Both the position numbers and the translations under genes were made by a program. A stretch of 64,000 bases of DNA from positions 69,578 through 133,577 of the forward strand of contig JAUWMZ010000003.1 in the NCBI GenBank assembly GCA_030612885.1, read 5' to 3'. Origin of the DNA: Candidatus Nealsonbacteria bacterium (GTDB lineage: Bacteria > Patescibacteriota > Minisyncoccia > Minisyncoccales > JAGMDC01). Within the stretch, counting starts at the first letter, position 1. Every line of letters begins with the position of its first letter. The notes beneath the pieces were generated by a model. It ran no database searches, was not told where the DNA came from, and saw only the letters and a program-made list of their open reading frames with translations. Positions 3,034 through 63,070 of this stretch are shown one piece after another.

Positions 3034-3152
3034 CGAAAAGTGGCTTCGCCACCCACGAAAAGGCCCGTGGCCCTCGTGGTTTTACGGGCTCGTGGCAAGC
3101 CGCTTTGAAGTGAGTCCCGAGATGAGCGAAGCGAATTTTTCGGGACTAATCT
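3034..3152. repeat. Cluster of GC-rich mini-hairpins immediately 3' of tRNA-Gln
   Basis: Contains GCCACgaaaaGTGGC, GTGGCttcGCCAC, CCACGaaaaggccCGTGG and GTCCCGA(gatgaGCGAAGCgaatttt)TCGGGAC at 3114-3146. The region is sharply more G+C-rich than its flanks and ends exactly where homology to the NUDIX gene begins. Confidence 0.75.
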
Positions 3153-3355
3153 ACATTGGAGAAACTTATAAATTTAAAGACAATAAAGTAAACAAAACCT
3201 GGATTATTCATCCTGTTTTAGCTGAACTAAAAGAATTACCTGATATAAGGCTAGATTGGGAACATACAGAATATAAATGGATTAAGCCGAAAGAGTTAAA
3301 GAAATTTGATATAGTTACTAATCTTGAAAAAAGTTACGAGAAGGCAATATTATAA
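3153..3355 (+). pseudogene. 3' fragment of a NUDIX hydrolase gene (paralogue of 25465..25965)
   Basis: Encodes ...IGETYKFKDNKVNKTWIIHPVLAELKELPDIRLDWEHTEYKWIKPKELKKFDIVTNLEKSYEKAIL. The full gene has ...IGETYKFIDSQINKTWIIYPVLVGLNRLPEIKLDWEHTEYKWIKPEQLKEFDIVTNLEKSFKKAAL. The two share several perfect 24-32 nt DNA blocks. The Nudix box is missing, and the N-terminus of ORF 3092..3355 is read out of the GC-rich hairpin cluster. Confidence 0.85.
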
Positions 3356-9548: not shown

Positions 9549-11363
9549 ATGGAGGAAAAGAAAAACAGAATAAAAGACTTACCTAAAATAGAACGACCTA
9601 GAGAAAAATTTCTCAAAAAAGGACCGGAGGCACTTTCAAAAAGTGATCTTTTAGCAATTTTGCTTGGAAGTGGAGTAAAGGGTAAAAATGTTCAAAAACT
9701 TGCGCAACAAATAATCAAAAAATTCGGCAAGGCTTTTTTGAACATTACAGTTGATGATTTGCTGAAAATTTCAGGTATTGGCCAAGTTAAAGCATTGCAA
9801 ATTGCATCAGCAATTTCTTTAGTAAAAAGATTTTATGAAGAAGAAAAAGGGAATGAAATTGTTATAAAAAATTCAAAGGATGTTATTTCTTTGACTTATG
9901 ATTTACGGGACAAGAAAAAGGAATATCTAATCTGTTTATATTTGAATGCAAGAAATGTTTTGATCAAAAAAGAAACAATATCAATCGGCACTCTTGATAA
10001 AAGTTTATTGCACCCAAGAGAGATTTTTTATCCAGCCGTTGAATTGAATTCCGCAAGTATTATTTTGGTACATAATCATCCCACAGGAGACCCAACTCCA
10101 AGCAAAGAAGACAACACAATTGTTGAAAAAATTGTTCAGGCCGGTGAAATAATGGGAATTTCTGTTATAGATTTTATTATTACTGCAAAGAACGGAAATT
10201 ATAGTTTTCATGAAGTCTTAAGAGGGGTTGATGAAAACATAGATTATGTTGCTGAAGGCGTTCAAGTAGGTTTGTTTGACTTTCTCGAAATCAAGAAACC
10301 AACATACGAAATAGATGCAAAAAAAATTAAGGAAAATTATTTTTATATTCCGCAAGTAAAACAAAATCATATTCAATTGCATAATCGTAGGTATATTGGC
10401 AGTAAACATAAATTAATAGAATGGATTTTTTCTGTTATCAATAAAGAGTGCGGAGGAGATTCTTTTGCTGATGTTTTTGCAGGAACGGGAATTGTGTCAG
10501 CTATAGCTACAAAACATTTTAAAAAAATTATACTAAACGATTTTCTTTATTCTAATTATGCAATATACCAAGCTTTTTTTGGAAATGGCGAATGGAATAA
10601 AAATAAAATAGACAACATTATCAAAGATTATAACAATATTTATGGAGAGGATTTAGAAGACAATTATTTTTCTAATTATTTTGGTGGTAAATATTTTAGC
10701 TATAATTCATCAAAAATTATTGGTTTCGTCAGGGAGAATATAGAGAAAAATAAAAATAATTTAACAAGCAGAGAATATTATATGCTTATTGCATCTTTGT
10801 TATATACGGTCGATAAAATTGCTAATACTGTCGGACATTACGATGCATATTTTAAAAAAGATTCTATAAATGATGATTTCTTTATGAAACCGATTGACCC
10901 TGTTAATGTTGATGAAATATCTATTTTTAGAGAAGATACGAACCTTTTGGTAAAAAAAATAAAAGCAGATGTAGTTTATATTGATCCGCCCTATAACTCC
11001 AGACAATATAGCCGGTTTTATCATGTACTTGAAACACTTACTAAATGGGATAAACCAAAATTACATGGAGTTGCATTAAAACCAGATCCAGAAAATATGA
11101 GTGATTATTGTAGAATCAATGCAAAGACTAGGTTTGCGGAACTTGTAAGGTATATTGATGCTCGGTATTTGGTTGTTTCATATAATAATACATATGACTC
11201 CAAAAGTAATTCATCAAAAAATAAAATTACGCTTCAAGAAATTGAAAAAATCTTACAGAGGAAAGGCAAAACTAAAGTCTTTGAAAAGGATTATAAGTAC
11301 TTTAACGCTGGAAACACAAATTTTAATAACCACAAAGAATATTTATTTGTCACTAAAGTTTAA
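9549..11363 (+). CDS. Fusion protein: full-length RadC-like JAB/MPN domain (about aa 1-225) plus a D12-class N6-adenine DNA methyltransferase
   Basis: RadC part: HhH ISGIGQVKALQI and JAMM motif LVHNHPTGDPTPSKED. MTase part: RRYIGSKHKL, FAGTGIVS (AdoMet site) and VVYIDPPYNSRQYSRFYH (DPPY catalytic motif). The frame is continuous across the junction. Confidence 0.8.
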   Translation: MEEKKNRIKDLPKIERPREKFLKKGPEALSKSDLLAILLGSGVKGKNVQKLAQQIIKKFGKAFLNITVDDLLKISGIGQVKALQIASAISLVKRFYEEEKGNEIVIKNSKDVISLTYDLRDKKKEYLICLYLNARNVLIKKETISIGTLDKSLLHPREIFYPAVELNSASIILVHNHPTGDPTPSKEDNTIVEKIVQAGEIMGISVIDFIITAKNGNYSFHEVLRGVDENIDYVAEGVQVGLFDFLEIKKPTYEIDAKKIKENYFYIPQVKQNHIQLHNRRYIGSKHKLIEWIFSVINKECGGDSFADVFAGTGIVSAIATKHFKKIILNDFLYSNYAIYQAFFGNGEWNKNKIDNIIKDYNNIYGEDLEDNYFSNYFGGKYFSYNSSKIIGFVRENIEKNKNNLTSREYYMLIASLLYTVDKIANTVGHYDAYFKKDSINDDFFMKPIDPVNVDEISIFREDTNLLVKKIKADVVYIDPPYNSRQYSRFYHVLETLTKWDKPKLHGVALKPDPENMSDYCRINAKTRFAELVRYIDARYLVVSYNNTYDSKSNSSKNKITLQEIEKILQRKGKTKVFEKDYKYFNAGNTNFNNHKEYLFVTKV

Positions 11364-25464: not shown

Positions 25465-25965
25465 ATGTATAGCAAAGAAGAAAAAATTTTAAACACAATC
25501 AGAGAATTTGCTGAAAAGTTGCCAAAGTTTCAAGACGGAAGAATTGATTATTCAAATTCTGATATTGCTCCAGTGATAACTGTTTTTATAAAGTATGAAT
25601 ATAAAATTCTTTTATTGAAGCGAAGCAATAAAGTCAGAACTTATCAAAGAAAGTGGAATGCTATTGCTGGTTATTTAGACGAATTAAAACCAATTCGTGA
25701 AAAAGCGATAGAAGAAATTCAAGAAGAAACGCAAATCAACAGAGATAATATTTTATCCTTTCACATTGGAGAAACTTATAAATTTATAGATTCTCAAATA
25801 AATAAAACTTGGATTATCTATCCTGTTTTAGTTGGATTAAATAGGTTGCCAGAGATAAAATTAGATTGGGAACATACAGAATATAAATGGATTAAACCAG
25901 AACAATTAAAAGAATTTGATATAGTTACTAATCTTGAAAAAAGTTTTAAAAAAGCAGCACTATAA
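25465..25965 (+). CDS. NUDIX hydrolase
   Basis: AGYLDELKPIREKAIEEIQEETQI is a Nudix-box-like segment. Extended -10 TGGTAGAAT lies at 25449-25456. Confidence 0.7.
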   Translation: MYSKEEKILNTIREFAEKLPKFQDGRIDYSNSDIAPVITVFIKYEYKILLLKRSNKVRTYQRKWNAIAGYLDELKPIREKAIEEIQEETQINRDNILSFHIGETYKFIDSQINKTWIIYPVLVGLNRLPEIKLDWEHTEYKWIKPEQLKEFDIVTNLEKSFKKAAL

Positions 25966-32009: not shown

Positions 32010-32040
32010 GGGCGAAGTCCGTCCTCGCCCAATTTGGGCG
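32010..32040. repeat. REP-like GC hairpin, copy A (GGGCGAAG-TCCGT-CCTCGCCC plus AATTTGGGCG tail)
   Basis: The stem extends to AAATTGGGCGAAG / CCTCGCCCAATTT. Same family as 44588, 60086, 60672, 60909 and 61993. Confidence 0.85.
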
Positions 32041-32065
32041 AGGTTGGGTCTTTTTTGGTTTTTGG

Positions 32066-40273: not shown

Positions 40274-40320
40274 TATAGCAAATCAGAGATTTGGTATATC
40301 AGACTAAAGTCTGTTATAAT
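40274..40320 (+). promoter_or_regulatory. Stereotyped promoter module, copy 1 (TATAGCAAATCAGAGATTTGGTATATCAGACTAAAGTCTGTTATAAT)
   Basis: TTGGTA-N18-TATAAT. Near-identical copies lie at 44337-44383 and, for the 3' 32 nt, at 47761-47792. Confidence 0.65.
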
Positions 40321-40353
40321 AAAATAAAGTTAAAAATTTAGAAAATTTATTAA

Positions 40354-44336: not shown

Positions 44337-44383
44337 TATAGCAAATCAGAGATTTGATATATTAAACTAAAGTTTGTTATAAT
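44337..44383 (+). promoter_or_regulatory. Stereotyped promoter module, copy 2
   Basis: TATAGCAAATCAGAGATTTGATATATTAAACTAAAGTTTGTTATAAT. The TATAAT ends 8 nt before the ATG at 44392. Confidence 0.65.
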
Positions 44384-44391
44384 AAAAAAAC

Positions 44392-46104
44392 ATGAAAAAA
44401 GTTGATAGTTTACCCCGCACCTTTTCTGGACAGAAGCCGAAGGCTTCAAAAATGCAAAAAAGTGCAGAAAAGGTGCGGGGTTTAAGAAAAAAATATCCGA
44501 AATTTGTTTACGAAAGTTATTTTTACGAAATCTTTAAAAATGATTTAAAGATTTCTTTTGATTTTAAGATATACACAAAAGGAGATAGGGCGAGGACGGA
44601 CTTCGCCCAATCTCACATTATTCATTTTCAACCAAAAATTGTAATAAAAAACATTGATAAAAAACGATTAGCAGAAATAGGCCCGCCTGCATCGGCTACG
44701 CCTGCTCGCAGCGATGCAGCAACTTCGGGCAAGCCGAAGGCGTTGCGGGCAGGGGACAGGGTATTAGATAATCTTGTTTTTCATTTGGGTTTAATGGAAA
44801 TTCCCAGTTATTGGAAAACGACTTGTTCGCCAGAAATTGAAATCAAAGCCGGATATTTAGATAAACAGCAAATAAAATGGTGGAAAGATTTTATCCTTAA
44901 TGGAATGGGTCAATTCTTTTATGAAAATAAAATTGATTTTACTAAATCAAATTTTCTAAAAATTACTTCAGTAGCGGAGAACAGTTCTCCGCTAAAATTG
45001 GCGGAGAACAGTTCTCCGCAATCTTTAACAAAGAATTTTTTAATCCCAATGGGCGAGGGCAAGGATTCAATTGTTACTTTAGAGTTGCTCAAAAAATTTG
45101 ACAAGATTAGCGTAGGCAAAAAAAGTCAAATAGATTGCTTTGTTGTTAATCCCACGAAAGAGCATTTTAAAATTTTAAAGATTGCTAAAATTAAAAATCC
45201 AATCATTGCCCAAAGAAAGATAGATCCTGTTTTATTAGAATTAAACCGAAAAGGATCCTACCCTGCCTGCCCTGAGCGAAGTCGAAGGGAGCTCGCCGAA
45301 GGGTTTTTGAATGGACACACGCCAATTACAGCTGTAATTTCTAATTTAGCAGTTTTTTGTGCGGTTTTATTTGGGTTTAAGAGTGTAGTTATGTCCTGTG
45401 AAAGAAGCTCAAATGAAGGCAATGTGAGGTATTTAAAAAAAACAATAAACCATCAGTGGTCAAAAAGTTTTGAATTTGAAAACAAATACAGAAATTATGT
45501 TAAAAAATATTTAGTTAAAGACATAAACCCCGCACCTTTTATGCACAGAAGGTGCGTGGTAAACTATTTTAGTTTTCTAAGGCCTTTGTATGAAATCCAG
45601 ATTGCTAAAATTTTTTCCAAATTTTCAGAATATTTTCCTGTATTTTTAAGCTGTAATGAAGCAAGAAAAACAAATTCCTGGACTAAAAAACCAACAGGCA
45701 AATGGTGCGGGAGATGCTCAAAATGCCTGTTTATTTGGACAATTTTATATCCTTTTGTAAAAGAAAAAGAATTAATAAAAATCTTTGGCAAAAATCTTTT
45801 TAAAGATAAAAAACTAATTCCAATAATGAAAGAACTAATAGGAAATGATAAATATAAGCCATTTGAATGCGTTGGCACTAAAAAAGAAACTCTGATTGCT
45901 TTTTACTTGTCATACAAAATTTACATAGGTGACACCTATGTAAATTTACCGCTTTTATTGAGGTATTTTGAAAAAAAAGTTTTGCCAAAATACTCAAAAT
46001 TAAAATTAGAGCAGGACTCAAAAAAGATATTAAGCTCATGGAATAAGCAAAATAACTTACCAAAAGAATTTGACAAAGCTTTAAGAAAGTTATATTTTAA
46101 ATAA
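44392..46104 (+). CDS. Uncharacterised dcw-cluster protein with a PP-loop-like GEGKDS motif and C-terminal CGRCSKC (possible MurL-type epimerase), carrying six in-frame GC-rich palindromic insertions
   Basis: Continuous 570-aa frame located between mraY and murD. The MurL assignment rests only on position next to murD and vague recall of the family. Insertions are listed as separate repeat features. Confidence 0.6.
   Translation: MKKVDSLPRTFSGQKPKASKMQKSAEKVRGLRKKYPKFVYESYFYEIFKNDLKISFDFKIYTKGDRARTDFAQSHIIHFQPKIVIKNIDKKRLAEIGPPASATPARSDAATSGKPKALRAGDRVLDNLVFHLGLMEIPSYWKTTCSPEIEIKAGYLDKQQIKWWKDFILNGMGQFFYENKIDFTKSNFLKITSVAENSSPLKLAENSSPQSLTKNFLIPMGEGKDSIVTLELLKKFDKISVGKKSQIDCFVVNPTKEHFKILKIAKIKNPIIAQRKIDPVLLELNRKGSYPACPERSRRELAEGFLNGHTPITAVISNLAVFCAVLFGFKSVVMSCERSSNEGNVRYLKKTINHQWSKSFEFENKYRNYVKKYLVKDINPAPFMHRRCVVNYFSFLRPLYEIQIAKIFSKFSEYFPVFLSCNEARKTNSWTKKPTGKWCGRCSKCLFIWTILYPFVKEKELIKIFGKNLFKDKKLIPIMKELIGNDKYKPFECVGTKKETLIAFYLSYKIYIGDTYVNLPLLLRYFEKKVLPKYSKLKLEQDSKKILSSWNKQNNLPKEFDKALRKLYFK
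44413..44480. repeat. PE-2 family palindromic element, copy 2, in frame inside the CDS
   Basis: CCCCGCACCTTTTCTG ... CAGAAAAGGTGCGGGG (16-bp perfect arms). It encodes LPRTFSGQKPKASKMQKSAEKVRGL. Confidence 0.85.
44588..44608. repeat. REP-like GC hairpin, copy B, in frame inside the CDS
   Basis: GGGCGAGG-ACGGA-CTTCGCCC is 21 nt (7 codons) and encodes (D)RARTDFAQ. Confidence 0.85.
44681..44750. repeat. 70-nt GC-rich two-hairpin element closed by an outer stem, in frame inside the CDS
   Basis: GCCCGC [CTGCATCG..17 nt..CGATGCAG] caa [CTTCGGgcaagCCGAAG] gcgtt GCGGGC. It encodes PPASATPARSDAATSGKPKALRAG. Confidence 0.8.
44974..45019. repeat. Tandem pair of the 19-nt palindrome GCGGAGAACAGTTCTCCGC (27-nt period), in frame inside the CDS
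   Basis: Copies lie at 44974-44992 and 45001-45019 and encode AENSSPLKL-AENSSPQSL. Confidence 0.85.
45253..45303. repeat. GC-rich insertion with CCCT(GAGCGAAGTCGA)AGGG hairpin and CGAAGGG direct repeat, in frame inside the CDS
   Basis: Encodes GSYPACPERSRRELAEG. The loop is related to the GAGCGAAGCGA loops at 3124-3134 and 8648-8658. Confidence 0.75.
45528..45559. repeat. PE-2 family short hairpin, copy 3, in frame inside the CDS
   Basis: CCCCGCACCTT-ttatgcacag-AAGGTGCGTGG encodes NPAPFMHRRCVV. Confidence 0.8.
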
Positions 46105-46476: not shown

Positions 46477-47766
46477 ATGAAGTTAGAAGAATTAAAAAAC
46501 AAAAAAATACTTATTTTAGGTTTAGGGAAAGAGGGAATGGATAACTTCAAATTTTTGAGAAGGCTATTTCCGAATAAAGTTTTGGGATTGGCTGACAGAA
46601 AAGAATTTTCAAAACTAATAAAAAAAGATAAGAAAATTAGATTACATTTGGGAAAAAATTACCTCAAAGCCATAAAAAAATACGATGTAATAATAAAATC
46701 TCCTGGCATTCCTATTCTTTTGCCAGAGGTTGAAAGGGCTTTAAAACAAGGAAAGATAACTTCGCAGACAAAAATATTTTTTGAAAATTGTCCTGGAACA
46801 ATTATTGGTATCACTGGCACAAAAGGGAAAAGCACTACTGCTGCCTTAATTTACAAAATACTAAAAGACGCTAAATTAAAAACTCATTTAATTGGAAATA
46901 TTGGAAAACCAGTTTTATCTTATTTGGGCAACCCATTCGACAAACTCAGGGCGAGAGCAAAAGAAAATGATATTTTTGTCTATGAATTATCCTGCCATCA
47001 ATTATACAATCTTAAAAAACCTGCCGGCAGGCAGGCAGGAGTCCCTTATATTGCTGTTCTCTTAAATATCTATCCTGAACATCTTGATTATTACAAAAGT
47101 TTTAAAGAATATATAAAAGCAAAAGCAAATATCACTCGCTGGCAAACCAAAAATGATTATTTAATTTTTAATTCCCAGGATAAAATTGTCAGAGAAATTG
47201 CTAAAAACACAAAGGCAAAAAAAATTCCGATTAAAGGAAAATTTAATCTCTTAAATGTATCTGCTGCCAAAGAAGTAGGAAAAATATTCAAGATTTCTTC
47301 TAAAGAAATTGCCAAGTCAATTAAAAGCTTTAAACCTTTGCCGCACCGATTAGAGTTTGTTGGTATCTATAAAGAAATCAAATTTTACAATGATTCTTTG
47401 TCTACTATTCCAGAAACCACTATTGCTGCCTTAGACGCTTTAGGGAAAGATGTTCAGACATTAATTTTGGGCGGCTATGATAGGGGATTGGATTTTAAAA
47501 AACTGGGCAAAAGAATAGCGAGAAGTAAAGTAAAAACATTGATTTTATTTCCAGAAACCGGTAAAAAAATTTGGATTTCTGTTACTTCTAAAAAACGATT
47601 TAAAGCTTTTTTTGTGAATAATATGAAAGAAGCAATAAAATTTGCCTATCAGCACACTGAAAAAGGAAAAATTTGTTTATTATCGCCGGCTTCACCAAGT
47701 TTTGGTATTTTTAAAGATTATAAGGAAAGAGGAAATTTATTTAAAAAGTACATTTCAGGAATTTGA
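46477..47766 (+). CDS. murD: UDP-N-acetylmuramoyl-L-alanine--D-glutamate ligase (MurD family)
   Basis: ATG at 46477 ([20 protein letters not shown]). [10 protein letters not shown] and Mur ligase domains. Two short GC-rich in-frame patches lie at 46926-46957 and 47010-47028. Confidence 0.88.
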
Positions 47767-47792
47767 TATATTAGACTAAAATTTGCTATAAT
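47761..47792 (+). promoter_or_regulatory. Stereotyped promoter module, copy 3 (overlaps the murD stop)
   Basis: ATTTGATATATTAGACTAAAATTTGCTATAAT. The TATAAT ends 7 nt before the ftsW ATG at 47800. Confidence 0.6.
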
Positions 47793-47799
47793 AACAATA

Positions 47800-59506: not shown

Positions 59507-60074
59507 ATTTTTCCAATTCTTTTTTTAGCCAAACAATTGCTTTTTTAACATAATATTCCTTGTCCTGCTCAACTTTTTTGAGAATTTTCTTAATATTTTT
59601 TTTGAGGTTTTTATCCTTCTTAAAGTTTATCAACAAAACCAACCCGAACCGTCTCTGCCAAAAATTTTTAGATAAAACTAATTTTTTAGATAATTCAAAA
59701 ATTTCTTTTTGTTTAATTTTAGTGATTTTTCTTATTCCTTGGGTAGCTAAAGTATCACAAACTGCCCAGTCAGAAATATCCTTGCTAAATTTTTTAATTA
59801 ACTTTAGTGTTTTTTCTGCATCTTTTTTGCAAATTCTGCCTAAAATTTTTGTTGCTAATAATCTTTCTTCAAAAACTCCACTTTTCCATAACTTTTCAAC
59901 CAAATCAAAATCCGGCTCTTTAATCCTTTTAGCAATATCATTCAACGTTGGAACCTTCACTCCATAAATTCTTTGAGATGAAGGCACAAATTTTTGATAA
60001 TTTTCTTTTACTTTTTCCTTTATTTCCCTTTTGAATATTTTCCGAATTTCCAAAATTTCCATAAGCAAGTACAT
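59493..60074 (-). CDS. DNA alkylation repair protein (AlkD/AlkC-like HEAT-repeat family)
   Basis: VPTLNDIAKRI...EERLLATKILG...ISDWAVCDTLA...FWQRRFGLVLL. The start is trimmed to 60074 or 60062 because the listed N-terminus (to 60131) is read through REP copy C. Confidence 0.75.
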   Translation of the reverse strand: MYLLMEILEIRKIFKREIKEKVKENYQKFVPSSQRIYGVKVPTLNDIAKRIKEPDFDLVEKLWKSGVFEERLLATKILGRICKKDAEKTLKLIKKFSKDISDWAVCDTLATQGIRKITKIKQKEIFELSKKLVLSKNFWQRRFGLVLLINFKKDKNLKKNIKKILKKVEQDKEYYVKKAIVWLKKELEKYGDN

Positions 60075-60085
60075 TGGATGAAGCT

Positions 60086-60116
60086 GGGCGAAGACGGACT
60101 TCGCCCAAATTTGGGC
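60086..60116. repeat. REP-like GC hairpin, copy C (GGGCGAAG-ACGGA-CTTCGCCC plus AAATTTGGGC)
   Basis: 3' flank of the RAYT-like gene. Its loop is in the opposite orientation to copy E on the 5' flank. Confidence 0.9.
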
Positions 60117-60155
60117 AAAATCCGCCCTCACTTTTTTATCTATTTTTTTATTCTT

Positions 60156-60899
60156 TTACTCTAAAACAAAATTGGAAAATTTTTTTATTTCTCCTTTGTA
60201 TTTTACCCAATTTTCAATAAAATCTTTACATCCCTGTTCTCCTCCCATTGCTTTTAGCATGGAGTTCCTTTCGGTCACTGAAGGAAAATTCTTTTTTCCG
60301 AGATAATCAGAATAACTAGACCATTTATAATTTTTTAAAAACTCAATTACTTTTTCCATATTCTTTATACCTATTTCTTTCCATTTTGGCTCTATAAGAG
60401 ATATAGGATTAGTATGGATATAGACAAATACAATTTTTAATTGTCTATCGGTTTTGATATGAATTGTCTTAAATCGTCCTTGAAAAAGGTAGCCCTTCCG
60501 ATTATATTTTTTATTGAAATAATTAGCATATCCTGTACCGAACTTTCTCATAAATTTAGTGATTCCTTCATCTTTAGTTTGTTTAATTAATAAATGGATA
60601 TGATTCGGCATAAAACAAAAAGTAAAGATTTCTACTAATAAATCTCTTTTGTCAGGAATATTAACTGAAATAGGCGAAGACGGACTTCGCCCGGCTTGTT
60701 CTCTGGATAATTTTTTTATGGTTTGAATCTCACGACGTCTTTTACCAATATTTACTGAATTAATATTATTAAATTCATAAAGAGAAAAAATGCCTCTATA
60801 GTAATCGTTAATGTCTTTGAAAATTAAGGAATCGCCAACTCCTCTGAGCACAATATGATAGATTTCGTTATTTATTAATTCTTGTTGTCTAATGGGCAT
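60156..60899 (-). mobile_element. IS200/IS605-family Y1 HUH transposase homologue of the REP-associated (RAYT-like) type
   Basis: HUH motif FMPNHIHLLIK, GYLFQGRFK, catalytic-Tyr motif VYIHTNPIS, KWSSYSDYLG. There is no TnpB partner, and it is flanked by inverted REP-like hairpins. Confidence 0.8.
60672..60692. repeat. REP-like GC hairpin, copy D, in frame inside the RAYT-like gene
   Basis: AGGCGAAG-ACGGA-CTTCGCCC encodes (E)QAGRSPSSP on the minus strand. Confidence 0.85.
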
Positions 60900-60908
60900 A
60901 ATTTAGCC

Positions 60909-60952
60909 GGGCGAAGTCCGTCTTCGCCTGATTTTATCTTCGCCTGATTTTA
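60909..60952. repeat. REP-like GC hairpin, copy E, followed by a 16-bp perfect tandem duplication of its 3' half
   Basis: GGGCGAAG-TCCGT-CTTCGCC, then TCTTCGCCTGATTTTA twice (60921-60936 and 60937-60952). Confidence 0.9.
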
Positions 60953-61374
60953 CTTAAATCCCCGTAAAGAACAATGGGACTCATAGCCTCTATTTCTTCC
61001 TTATAATTTATGCCAGGAATGGGATTTAATAAAAATATCTTTTTACCTAAAACATAAGCAAATCCCATTTCTAAAAAAGTATTGCCTCCAATATAATTTT
61101 TGATGTCATTTTTATCAAAATTCAAAACTAAAACTGCATCACTATTCTTTATTCTTTCTATATGTTCATCAATCAATGATTTCTTGAGTTTCAATAAATC
61201 TTCTGTGAGATCGTTTTTTCTCATTGCGTGAAAATCCTTCATAGATACAGTATCACCCTTCACTCCAATTTCTGGTGACCAGATAAAAACAAGATGGTTT
61301 TTTCTTTCTAATTCTTTCTTGATTTCATAACATTCTTTTGTAAAAAATGCTGATGAACAAATTGTTATTTTCAT
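60934..61374 (-). CDS. Nucleoside 2-deoxyribosyltransferase-like protein
   Basis: Start at 61374 (MKITICSSAFF...). Contains SDAVLVLNFDKNDIKNYIGGNTFLEMGFAYVLGKKIFLL. The last codons (KIRRR*) are read from the duplicated REP half-site. Confidence 0.5.
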   Translation of the reverse strand: MKITICSSAFFTKECYEIKKELERKNHLVFIWSPEIGVKGDTVSMKDFHAMRKNDLTEDLLKLKKSLIDEHIERIKNSDAVLVLNFDKNDIKNYIGGNTFLEMGFAYVLGKKIFLLNPIPGINYKEEIEAMSPIVLYGDLSKIRRR

Positions 61375-61384
61375 AATTAAAGAT

Positions 61385-61972
61385 TTAAACTTCCTTTTTA
61401 TAGCCGATTTCAGGAAACATTTCAACTATTGTTTCCAAGGGAATACCTCCTAAAAGATTGTAATAACTTCCTTCTATTCTTTTAACAAATGACGAACTGG
61501 AATGCCTTAAAGGGTCATAACCCAAAGCAAAGGTATTGAAACGAGGATCTTCGTCAAGATATTTCTCAATTTCTTTATCTGAAAGTTTTCTCATAAATAC
61601 CTCTGTTTTGACAACTTTTGAAACTACTTTATCCAAAGATGTATTAATCATATAAATTCCTGTATAAAATTGATGGTTATTTCCTGAAAGAGATTGTAGT
61701 CGCTGAAATTCCTCTTCTTTTGATTTTGGCTTTTCCAGAATTTGATTATTAAAATACCCGACTGAATCCATCCCAATTACAATAGCATCAGAATAATTTT
61801 TGGCAACTGCTTCAGCTTTTAATTTTGATAGTGTTTTAACTAATTCTTCGGGATTATTTCTCTCTACTTGAGATTCATTAACATTACTCCCTTCTATTTC
61901 AAAATCAATTCCTAAACATCCAAATGCTTCTTTGCGATAAGGAGAGGTTGTAGCTAAAATTATTTTAGTCAT
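61385..61972 (-). CDS. maf: Maf-like nucleoside triphosphate pyrophosphatase
   Basis: IILATTSPYRKEAF..., VIGMDSV, GAFALGYDPL-type motifs. Confidence 0.8.
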   Translation of the reverse strand: MTKIILATTSPYRKEAFGCLGIDFEIEGSNVNESQVERNNPEELVKTLSKLKAEAVAKNYSDAIVIGMDSVGYFNNQILEKPKSKEEEFQRLQSLSGNNHQFYTGIYMINTSLDKVVSKVVKTEVFMRKLSDKEIEKYLDEDPRFNTFALGYDPLRHSSSSFVKRIEGSYYNLLGGIPLETIVEMFPEIGYKKEV

Positions 61973-61992
61973 AAAAATAAATTGGTGAGATT

Positions 61993-62010
61993 GGGCGAAG
62001 TCCGTCTTCG
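61993..62010. repeat. REP-like GC hairpin, copy F (3' truncated)
   Basis: GGGCGAAG-TCCGT-CTTCG then diverges. It is intergenic. Confidence 0.75.
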
Positions 62011-62020
62011 TATATTTATT

Positions 62021-63070
62021 TTATCTAAAATTTTTCAGGAGAGTGATGAATTTTTGAAGAATTGTTCCTATTTTTTCGGTTAAAGTTTTTATCTCAAAGT
62101 GAATCAGTAAAAGAATGCCTAATCCAGCCATAATTAAACTAAAACATCTTACTATCAAACTAAAAGCAATCCCTGTATTTAAATTTAAACCAAAAATATC
62201 AAAAATCAATGCCTGGCTCCATTCAAAACTTCCTAAGGCAGCTGGAATAGGTATAAAATAAACCAAATCTATTAAAGCATTTATTGAAATAATCTCTCCA
62301 ATGCCCAATTTATCGCCTAAAAATAATATTATCAGCCAATAAGATAAAATTAAAAGTAAAATCTCGAGCAGGGTTAAAAAAGAAACTATTATTAATTTAG
62401 CTTTTTGATGTTTGAAAAAATAAAAAATTTCTGTTTCAATGTCAGCAATCTTTGTTTTCACTCCATTTATTAGACCTAGTCTATCTAAACGGAGGAACTC
62501 AATAAAGAATGTGAAAAATCCCTTTTTATCCGGAGATTTTCTAATTATGCGGGAATAAAAAAGACAAAATATAAGGAAGCAAAAAAAAGTTATTCCAGAA
62601 ATTATAATTTCAAAAATAAAAGGTAAATTAAAAGAAAGAAATAAAAACAATACCCCTAAAACAATAAAGAAAAATAATATACTTAGAAAAACAGCTTCGC
62701 TTATAATAATGGAAATAATAATTTTATCTAAAGAGGCCTTTGTTCTTTCTTTAATAATATATGCTTTAAACGGCTGGCCTCCGGCAAAAATAATCGGAGT
62801 CAAATAATTAATAGCAAAACCAACAGTTCGAGCTATTAAAACATCTAAAAAGGAAATTTTTTCAGATAATTGAGTTTTTAATATAATTTTTAGCCGCAGA
62901 GTCCCAGCTAAAAAACTAAAGACAATAACTCCAAACACAAAAAAGAACTGTGTTATTGAAATATTGGAAAGAGCAGAAACTATATTTTCAAGCCCTATTT
63001 TTTTAAAGGCAATAAAAAAAAGGATTAAACCTATTAATAAAGATAAAGAGAAAAATATAATCTTTCTCAT
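62021..63070 (-). CDS. Polytopic membrane protein, lysylphosphatidylglycerol-synthase-TM-region/flippase-like (UPF0104)
   Basis: 349 aa and about 8 TM helices, with the N-terminal pattern typical of UPF0104. Confidence 0.5.
   Translation of the reverse strand: MRKIIFFSLSLLIGLILFFIAFKKIGLENIVSALSNISITQFFFVFGVIVFSFLAGTLRLKIILKTQLSEKISFLDVLIARTVGFAINYLTPIIFAGGQPFKAYIIKERTKASLDKIIISIIISEAVFLSILFFFIVLGVLFLFLSFNLPFIFEIIISGITFFCFLIFCLFYSRIIRKSPDKKGFFTFFIEFLRLDRLGLINGVKTKIADIETEIFYFFKHQKAKLIIVSFLTLLEILLLILSYWLIILFLGDKLGIGEIISINALIDLVYFIPIPAALGSFEWSQALIFDIFGLNLNTGIAFSLIVRCFSLIMAGLGILLLIHFEIKTLTEKIGTILQKFITLLKNFR

Follow-up and report, generated by a model that had tools for sequence, protein, structure and literature searches.

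Why would a gene for a Y1 HUH endonuclease carry the same short hairpin before its start codon, within its coding sequence and past its stop codon? The question is raised by a minus-strand open reading frame (ORF) in a stretch of 64,000 nucleotides from a Candidatus Nealsonbacteria genome (contig JAUWMZ010000003.1; hereafter, the window), which an initial annotation had read as a REP-associated tyrosine transposase (RAYT) accompanied by its repetitive extragenic palindromic (REP) elements. We favor, with moderate confidence, the explanation that this locus forms a REPtron-like unit that copies its own hairpin and whose enzyme belongs to a clade of class-2, RAYT-like Y1 HUH endonucleases specific to Patescibacteria. 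What is new is the triple-hairpin layout, a conserved and continually renewed trait of a large Parcubacteria clade in which each paralog has a separate hairpin.

The Y1 gene and its hairpin in the window

A 21-nt hairpin, GGGCGAAG-ACGGA-CTTCGCCC, occurs in three copies at the Y1 ORF: upstream, internally and in frame, and downstream. The locus consists of the following features.

60156-60899, minus strand: Y1 HUH endonuclease gene, RAYT-like class-2 TnpA_Y1; 247 aa; Pfam Y1_Tnp
60086-60106: downstream cognate hairpin GGGCGAAGACGGACTTCGCCC, 49 nt past the stop codon of the Y1 ORF
60113-60131: decayed inverted second copy GGGCAAAATCCGCCCTCAC beside the downstream hairpin, read from the sequence and compared with the ortholog L080
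60672-60692: internal cognate hairpin AGGCGAAGACGGACTTCGCCC, in frame, encoding G-R-S-P-S-S-P at residues about 70-76
60909-60928: upstream cognate hairpin GGGCGAAGTCCGTCTTCGCC, its end 9 nt from the ATG of the Y1 ORF
60921-60936 and 60937-60952: perfect 16-nt tandem duplication TCTTCGCCTGATTTTA x2, one hairpin arm included

The three copies have identical stems and reverse-complemented loops; on the gene strand the upstream hairpin reads GGCGAAG-ACGGA-CTTCGCCC, and the ORF is translated through the internal copy as ..EQAGRSPSSPIS... Folded as single-stranded DNA (ssDNA), the window hairpins reach -8 to -15 kcal/mol (z about -3.6 to -4.1). The downstream hairpin, an AAATTT spacer and the decayed copy together form a REPIN-like doublet, and an intact doublet of the same hairpin family is present in the related locus L157. 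No window copy has GTAG or GTGG at the hairpin foot. The statements of the initial annotation about the sequence itself, covering the hairpin copies, the in-frame internal copy, the 16-nt duplication and the HUH and tyrosine motifs, all hold.

The Y1_Tnp match (PF01797, E=1.4e-10) is limited to residues 88-163 of the protein. The HUH motif is N99-H100-I101-H102 (NHIHLL), the catalytic tyrosine is Y160 within YIHTNP, and a KWSSY motif is conserved in the C-terminal tail. A protein database search returned 2216 homologs, the best 120 of which are 59-85% identical over their full length (228-286 aa); among these 120, H100, H102, Y160, H162 and N164 are invariant, and the few with a source name come from Parcubacteria. 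AlphaFold2 (AF2) gave an unusable model from a 23-sequence alignment (predicted local distance difference test (pLDDT) score of 43), and the 120-sequence alignment raised pLDDT to 71 with a predicted template modeling score (pTM) of 0.71. The resulting model comprises beta1 (13-20), alphaA (30-42), an extra helix (51-68) and a low-confidence loop (69-88), followed by beta2 (89-96), beta3 with the HUH motif (100-107) and alphaD with Y160 (151-163). The hairpin-encoded peptide sits in the low-confidence loop before beta2, N-terminal to the HUH motif. The top Protein Data Bank (PDB) match of the model (E=6e-6) is 4ER8_A, a complex of E. coli TnpA_REP with a REP hairpin, and the TnpA proteins of IS608 and ISDra2 come next; a profile search of PDB sequences had ISDra2 TnpA as its sole match (E=0.03), and 4ER8 was reached only via fold comparison.

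These strong structural matches to IS608 and ISDra2 TnpA are among the arguments for a different reading, in which the locus is an autonomous IS200-like insertion sequence (IS). The flanking hairpins would then be its left and right ends, the hairpin-gene-hairpin unit would transpose as a whole, and isolated hairpins and doublets would be excision junctions or derivatives resembling palindrome-associated or miniature inverted-repeat transposable elements (PATE/MITE-like); in most loci, hairpins lie immediately beyond the two ends of the gene, which fits this picture as well. The protein itself argues otherwise. It has the Y..NP motif of class 2 and not Y...Q (PMC6006769), reaches only 14.9 of the 55 bits required by the NCBIfam IS200 model NF033573, and is about 240 aa long with a conserved tail. 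Its gene lies between an ORF with a weak Nuc_deoxyrib_tr match and a DNA_alkylation gene, with no TnpB adjoining, as had been noted at the outset. The motif, the IS200 score, the missing TnpB partner and the best structural match to 4ER8 support assigning the protein to the RAYT-like Y1 HUH enzymes, as opposed to the ordinary IS200 TnpA proteins, in agreement with the initial annotation.

Family-wide layout and renewal of the hairpins

Scanning GTDB with one genome for each species yielded 360 related stretches, of which the best 79 loci, from 59 assemblies, were kept. All or nearly all are Patescibacteria, and 13 assemblies hold two to six copies. The layout comparison covered 78 evaluable loci and counted shared words of at least 12 nt; hairpin positions and gene neighbors were counted over 81 loci. 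The premise that RAYTs are mainly proteobacterial does not hold, as RAYT-like genes in general are not so distributed (PMC6006769) and the present family is abundant in Parcubacteria, with its 2216 protein matches and 360 GTDB stretches.

Scanning for perfect GC-containing hairpins revealed the same arrangement again and again, an identical hairpin three times per locus with a sequence that changes from locus to locus. The positions are about 5-40 nt before the ATG, +183 to +231 nt within the gene and about 3-60 nt past the stop codon. The upstream and downstream flanks share a word in 63/78 loci (control, 0), the upstream flank and the internal linker in 48/78 (control, 1), the linker and the downstream flank in 52/78 (control, 1) and all three zones in 42/78. 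Perfect hairpins reach a density of 7.1 per kb in the upstream zone, 3.9 in the internal linker and 6.8 in the downstream zone, compared with 0-0.46 in other gene segments and 0.74 in the background. Counted by locus, a hairpin occupies the upstream position in 59/81 and the linker in 48/81, with 0-6 for the other gene segments. The peptides encoded in the linker are highly varied, GRSPSSP and NKEQFSD among them, whereas the palindrome is retained; the element maintained there is therefore a nucleic-acid structure, not a peptide.

Protein and hairpin vary together. In the 13 assemblies with several paralogs, these are 50-76% identical and each has a different hairpin. Across loci, the longest shared hairpin word is at least 11 nt in 86% of the pairs with at least 80% protein identity and in 1-2% of those below 60%, and the observed correlation between hairpin similarity and protein identity was reached in 0 of 500 permutations. 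A locus-specific hairpin that tracks protein relatedness is the pattern that founded the RAYT-REP link (PMC6006769).

These results bear on the idea that the hairpins have nothing to do with the Y1 protein and are generic palindromes, spread in some other way or by replication errors, that gather here by chance or target preference. Perfect GC-containing hairpins are fairly common at the background density given above, and other palindrome families, without a cognate gene in the window, also lie in frame in its MurL gene. Locus- and paralog-specific hairpins that are identical at three positions in 42/78 loci, against controls of 0-1, and whose similarity tracks protein identity nevertheless make this idea highly improbable, and we disfavor it.

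Close orthologs show how the hairpins turn over. L080 is the ortholog of the window locus, with an 85% identical protein, the same neighbors and 88% nucleotide identity over the locus. Its internal hairpin occupies the same codon position with a flipped loop (GGGCGAGG-ACGGA-CTTCGCCC in L080, GGGCGAAG-TCCGT-CTTCGCCT in the window), and in each of the two loci an A/G stem variant is common to several copies. Relative to L080, the window shows a rearranged spacer ahead of the upstream hairpin, with about 22 nt lost by alignment and the 16-nt duplication gained. A second pair of orthologs, L003 and L005 (89% nucleotide identity), differs by a compensatory A-T to G-C change in the upstream stem; the internal hairpin is of the downstream type in L003 and of the upstream type in L005, including the new lineage-specific G-C pair. 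Because the internal copy of L005 matches the upstream type down to this pair, internal copies are re-copied or converted from the flank copies, in a process that is ongoing.

In L003, L011 and L057 the two flanks carry different hairpin types and the internal copy is of one of these types, which suggests a switch of hairpin type within the locus. An exchange of N- and C-terminal protein modules at the internal hairpin, for which we also looked, left no clear outliers, the N-terminal part being short.

Two details to which the initial annotation had attached meaning lost it in these comparisons. It had read the inverted orientation of the copies as the classic RAYT/REP arrangement, but this orientation is not a defining feature. 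The stems are perfect palindromes, so loop orientation is uninformative on the mode of insertion; it varies among loci and flips between 85%-identical orthologs, and we rejected it as a sign of inverted insertion. The 16-nt duplication, taken for a footprint of recent activity, also occurs in the 99% identical strain L161 and is missing from the 85% ortholog L080, and no evidence ties it to transposase action. The duplicated stretch, with its hairpin arm, does reach into the neighboring ORF 60934-61425 (minus strand), the one with the weak Nuc_deoxyrib_tr match: this ORF ends in ..SKIRRR*, where its L080 ortholog ends in ..SKIEES*, and its last four residues, IRRR, and stop codon derive from the duplication.

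The hairpins could also be cis control elements, that is, operator or autoregulatory sites or barriers to transcription or translation, identical because the protein binds all three and dispersed only incidentally. Such a role would suit their strong concentration at the gene, their low genome-wide copy number, their stereotyped positions before the ATG, inside the gene and after the stop codon, and an internal copy that is renewed instead of decaying. We examined the transcript-level versions of this proposal. Stem mismatches on the sense strand are unbiased, with 21 G:T and 21 A:C; because the two are equal, a role as RNA structure is unsupported, and an Rfam search gave no credible family. 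There is no sign of selection on the fold of the sense RNA, and the mismatches appear to favor DNA over sense RNA as the form that matters. A terminator scan of 59800-62200 found five terminator-like sites against 1.0 expected, four of them on hairpin copies, yet a terminator role is not convincing: the internal copy is the sole one on the gene strand and its T-tail is weak, and the other three hairpin sites are on the opposite strand. Copies in unrelated genes that differ between genomes (see below) also fit cis control poorly. As a substitute for self-copying we consider it unlikely; it is compatible with the REPtron-like explanation and would be an added layer more than an alternative.

Dispersal, mobility and what the locus may do

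Searching the whole window with up to three mismatches returned six sites, against 0.00 expected from 100 shuffles. Three of them lie away from the Y1 locus, one in the ORF 44392-46104 (plus strand), which encodes MurL (PF26299/PF26298). This protein is about 70-110 aa longer than most homologs, and its alignment contains six in-frame, GC-rich palindromic inserts that are missing in most of them.

61993-62012: dispersed copy, intergenic between two minus-strand genes, one arm degenerate
32010-32030 (feature 32010-32043): dispersed intergenic copy, overlapping a second palindrome CCTCGCCCAATTTGGGCGAGG
44588-44608: dispersed copy GGGCGAGGACGGACTTCGCCC, in frame within the MurL ORF, peptide DRARTDFAQ
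44407-44481, plus strand: MurL insert, third palindrome family
44584-44610, plus strand: MurL insert, the window's cognate hairpin copy
44680-44754, plus strand: MurL insert, GC-rich, encoding ..GPPASATPARSDAATSGKPKALRAG..
44974-45018 (also given as 44972-45019), plus strand: MurL insert, second-family tandem doublet GCGGAGAACAGTTCTCCGC x2
45256-45300, plus strand: MurL insert, GC-rich, encoding ..PACPERSRRELAEG..
45526-45561, plus strand: MurL insert, third palindrome family

In the MurL of L157 (61% identical), the cognate hairpin family forms an inverted doublet in the loop that the second family occupies in the window. The same family thus lies in frame in different MurL loops of the two genomes, and by this comparison its copies do move. 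The expectation that the hairpin would extend beyond the Y1 locus is borne out by the three further copies, and comparison with other genomes shows mobility. The hairpin does not, as had been proposed, account for the other GC-rich insertions of the window: only one is this hairpin, and the others belong to different palindrome families without a cognate gene in the window.

These other MurL inserts have features of their own. The second-family doublet at 44972-45019 folds as ssDNA to -21.8 kcal/mol (z -9), and its hairpin is the cognate one of Y1 paralogs of other genomes (L031, L036 and L069); no second Y1 paralog fitting it was found in the window, and the gene that goes with it may be located in another part of this genome. 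The third palindrome family, with arms CCCCGCACCTTTTCTG / CAGAAAAGGTGCGGGG and a shorter relative, is represented by two in-frame inserts, with no associated enzyme identified. P0122, a MurL homolog with 65% identity, has the 45256-45300 insert nearly whole (TCPACPERSRREPAEG) and the 44680-44754 insert in a shorter form (GPPASLR...EALRAGD); because P0122 shares both, these two inserts are older than the hairpin copies. Taken together, the inserts resemble a decoration of an essential cell-wall gene of the kind made by Rickettsia palindromic elements (RPE).

The Y1 gene is itself polymorphic at a syntenic site. It is present in L161 and in L080, whereas neither the gene nor a GC hairpin is found upstream of DNA_alkylation in L158 and L159. 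DNA_alkylation followed by DUF3850 is kept in all four, CtpB lies further downstream in L158 and L159, and the upstream side of L159 retains UbiA and LPG_synthase. Directly before the DNA_alkylation start codon, L158 (2745-2775) and L159 (4808-4838) have an AT-rich palindrome (CTATTCTAATGTTCTCAAGAACATTAGAATAG), its arms about 13 nt long.

This presence/absence polymorphism is what an autonomous IS200-like element would leave. So are Y1 gene neighbors that are not conserved (the largest neighbor family is found in 6/81 loci) and genomes with two to six copies. Copies within one genome are, however, 50-76% identical and carry different hairpins, and no near-identical copies were seen, a comparison in which metagenome assemblies may have collapsed identical copies. 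With the protein features described above, this leads us to regard the IS reading as improbable.

Several results weigh against our preferred explanation, a REPtron-like unit that copies its hairpin. The protein scores 41.5 bits against a cut-off of 80 with the NCBIfam equivalog model NF047646 (REP_Tyr_transpos), matching over residues 88-166 only. Its similarity to E. coli RayT by hhalign is weak (probability 17%), although the PxH-H, (W/F)Q-RF and Y..NP motifs align despite this score. Among 186 hairpin instances there is no conserved guide or cleavage tetranucleotide and no conserved flank position, and the canonical GT[AG]G REP tag is therefore absent. In 959 kb of flanks we counted only 26 dispersed cognate copies (0.27 per 10 kb), most loci having none. 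Per 10 kb, the rate is 0.06 for other loci of the same genome and 0.014 for other genomes; by these figures the hairpins look more like a local gene feature than a proliferating REP population. The co-divergence of protein and hairpin is partly expected from the shared descent of orthologous loci, and the loop flips could come from template switching in any palindrome, with no enzyme needed.

Two further searches concern the hairpin's surroundings and its distribution. AGCT, promising by eye as a flanking motif, lies within 9 nt of only 25/186 hairpins. A metagenome scan for the exact hairpin gave 74 loci, none encoding a Y1 homolog; 71 are on contigs with a GC content of at least 45%, and because of this composition these 71 matches are almost certainly chance.

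How would self-copying work? We infer that it is the Y1 protein, and not another enzyme, that binds, cleaves and copies the hairpin, and that its substrate is ssDNA. The enzyme would recognize its own cognate palindromic hairpin in ssDNA and would cut and rejoin DNA beside it through the HUH-metal site and Tyr160. The hairpin would thereby be copied or converted repeatedly, mostly within its own locus, at the 5' flank, in a permissive surface loop of the enzyme's own protein and at the 3' flank. Occasionally it would be exported elsewhere as a singleton or an inverted doublet, including in frame into tolerant loops such as those of MurL. The internal copy may persist because of its location in a disordered linker between alphaA plus the extra helix and beta2.

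A tentative extension, which we hold to be possible though doubtful, is that the internal hairpin is a working part of the system, a built-in self-recognition site and not a tolerated passenger. The idea builds on a substrate that is kept in frame at one linker in about two thirds of lineages and re-copied from the flanks. If it were true, the enzyme might exert negative feedback by binding or cleaving the ssDNA of its own gene, or the internal copy might act as a third 'end' that yields hairpin-only doublets. Such a self-targeting control circuit has not been described for HUH transposases.

The preferred explanation, a self-copying REPtron-like unit, would extend REP/RAYT-type systems to the Patescibacteria (the candidate phyla radiation, CPR), whose streamlined, AT-rich genomes of about 1 Mb are not where repeats are expected; our literature search found no paper connecting RAYT/REP with Patescibacteria. 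The family is large and its pairing is readable, with GC hairpins in AT-rich DNA and up to six enzyme/hairpin pairs per genome, and it is a natural data set for the co-evolution of HUH-hairpin specificity. A fixed in-ORF copy that is renewed from the flanks poses a testable question of self-regulation or self-targeting. The in-frame decoration of essential genes, MurL among them, is relevant to annotation and to structural studies of CPR proteins, and the copies may serve as strain-level population markers.

Some features of the window stand apart from the Y1 locus. A promoter-like element of about 45-75 nt (ATAGCAAATCAGAGATTTGRTATATYARAC..GTTATAATAA) lies upstream of genes at 40274-40349, 44337-44412 and 47755-47797, and the same element precedes the Y1 gene of another genome (L007, about 9905-9950); it may be a shared Parcubacteria promoter or operator. 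The window also contains a direct repeat of 203 nt with 81% identity (3153-3355 and 25763-25965, 22.6 kb apart) and, at 3047-3105, a GC-rich stretch with strong structure (-29.6 kcal/mol).

Comparison with known systems

TnpA_Y1 proteins fall into 12 subclasses, and class 2 is characterized by Y---NP, low copy number, low within-genome identity and, in five subclasses, a REPtron (PMC6006769). Like the REPtrons of E. coli RayT (4ER8) and the Pseudomonas RAYTs, the present loci combine a Y1 HUH enzyme bearing Y..NP, a gene flanked by its own hairpin, inverted doublets and diverged paralogs per genome with a hairpin family each, and the best structural match is to this group. They differ in lacking the GT[AG]G foot, in their short and nearly perfect palindromes, in a protein of about 240 aa that has a long tail and an additional helix-loop insert ahead of beta2 and scores below the NCBIfam cut-off, and in their occurrence in Patescibacteria. 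REPtron genomes contain hundreds of copies, and more than about 50-100 would count as dispersal in high copy number; here, flank densities in partial genomes extrapolate to tens at most. That low number is of the same order as in Bertels groups 1 and 4, for which flanking-16-mer counts are 12-14 (Bertels et al. 2017). Of the RAYT/REP arrangement proposed initially, the gene with its own hairpin on both flanks and inside stands, and the canonical form does not: the model score is below the cut-off, there is no GTAG foot and dispersed copies are few.

An in-frame REP inside its own tnpA_REP gene has already been described, in subclass 2.4 (Bertels group 4) (PMC6006769). As here, that cognate REP keeps the frame, lies in a peripheral variable region and is accompanied by flanking REPs (PMC6006769). 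Its position is different, the copy in our family preceding the HuH motif (99-102) in the alphaA:beta2 linker at residues about 70-78. Subclass 2.4 also features WQ, YIxNNP and long or 'double foot' GTAG REPs (PMC6006769), in place of which we find FQ, YIHTNP and no GTAG.

Two other comparisons are more distant. IS200/IS605 TnpA proteins with their PATE/MITE derivatives share the Y1 fold, subterminal hairpins at both gene ends and possibly hairpin-only derivatives. They differ by Y...Q, a core-only protein of about 150 aa, frequent association with TnpB and near-identical multicopy elements, whereas the highest within-genome identity here is 76%, a value from metagenome assemblies, which can collapse identical repeats. 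RPEs and intragenic REPs are similar in placing palindromes in frame in tolerant loops of functional genes, as singletons or dimers; RPEs measure 100-150 bp and have no known cognate enzyme, while the elements here are 19-45 nt long, with a link to a Y1 gene in the case of one family.

The TIRtrons, with their TIRYT enzymes, and subclass 2.1 share with our family a length of about 238 aa, NH[VYF]H, FQ and Y[IV]HLNP-like motifs and a tail with a conserved serine, together with flanking inverted repeats, some of them self-complementary, and few or moderately abundant genomic copies (PMC3733652; PMC6006769). TIRtrons have a terminal inverted repeat (TIR) with the consensus GGGGWSAS, and the hairpins read in our loci differ from one to the next. 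Subclass 2.1 and the TIRYTs also carry a C-terminal helix-turn-helix (HTH) or Bac_DnaA_C-like domain, and a Pfam search of the window protein finds neither. Subclass 2.1 is reported to lack REP-like hairpins, and no internal copy is described for it (PMC6006769), unlike our family with its flanking and internal hairpins. By its motifs (FQ, YIHTNP and the KWSSY tail) and its length, compared by description, the family looks more like subclass 2.1 and the TIRYTs.

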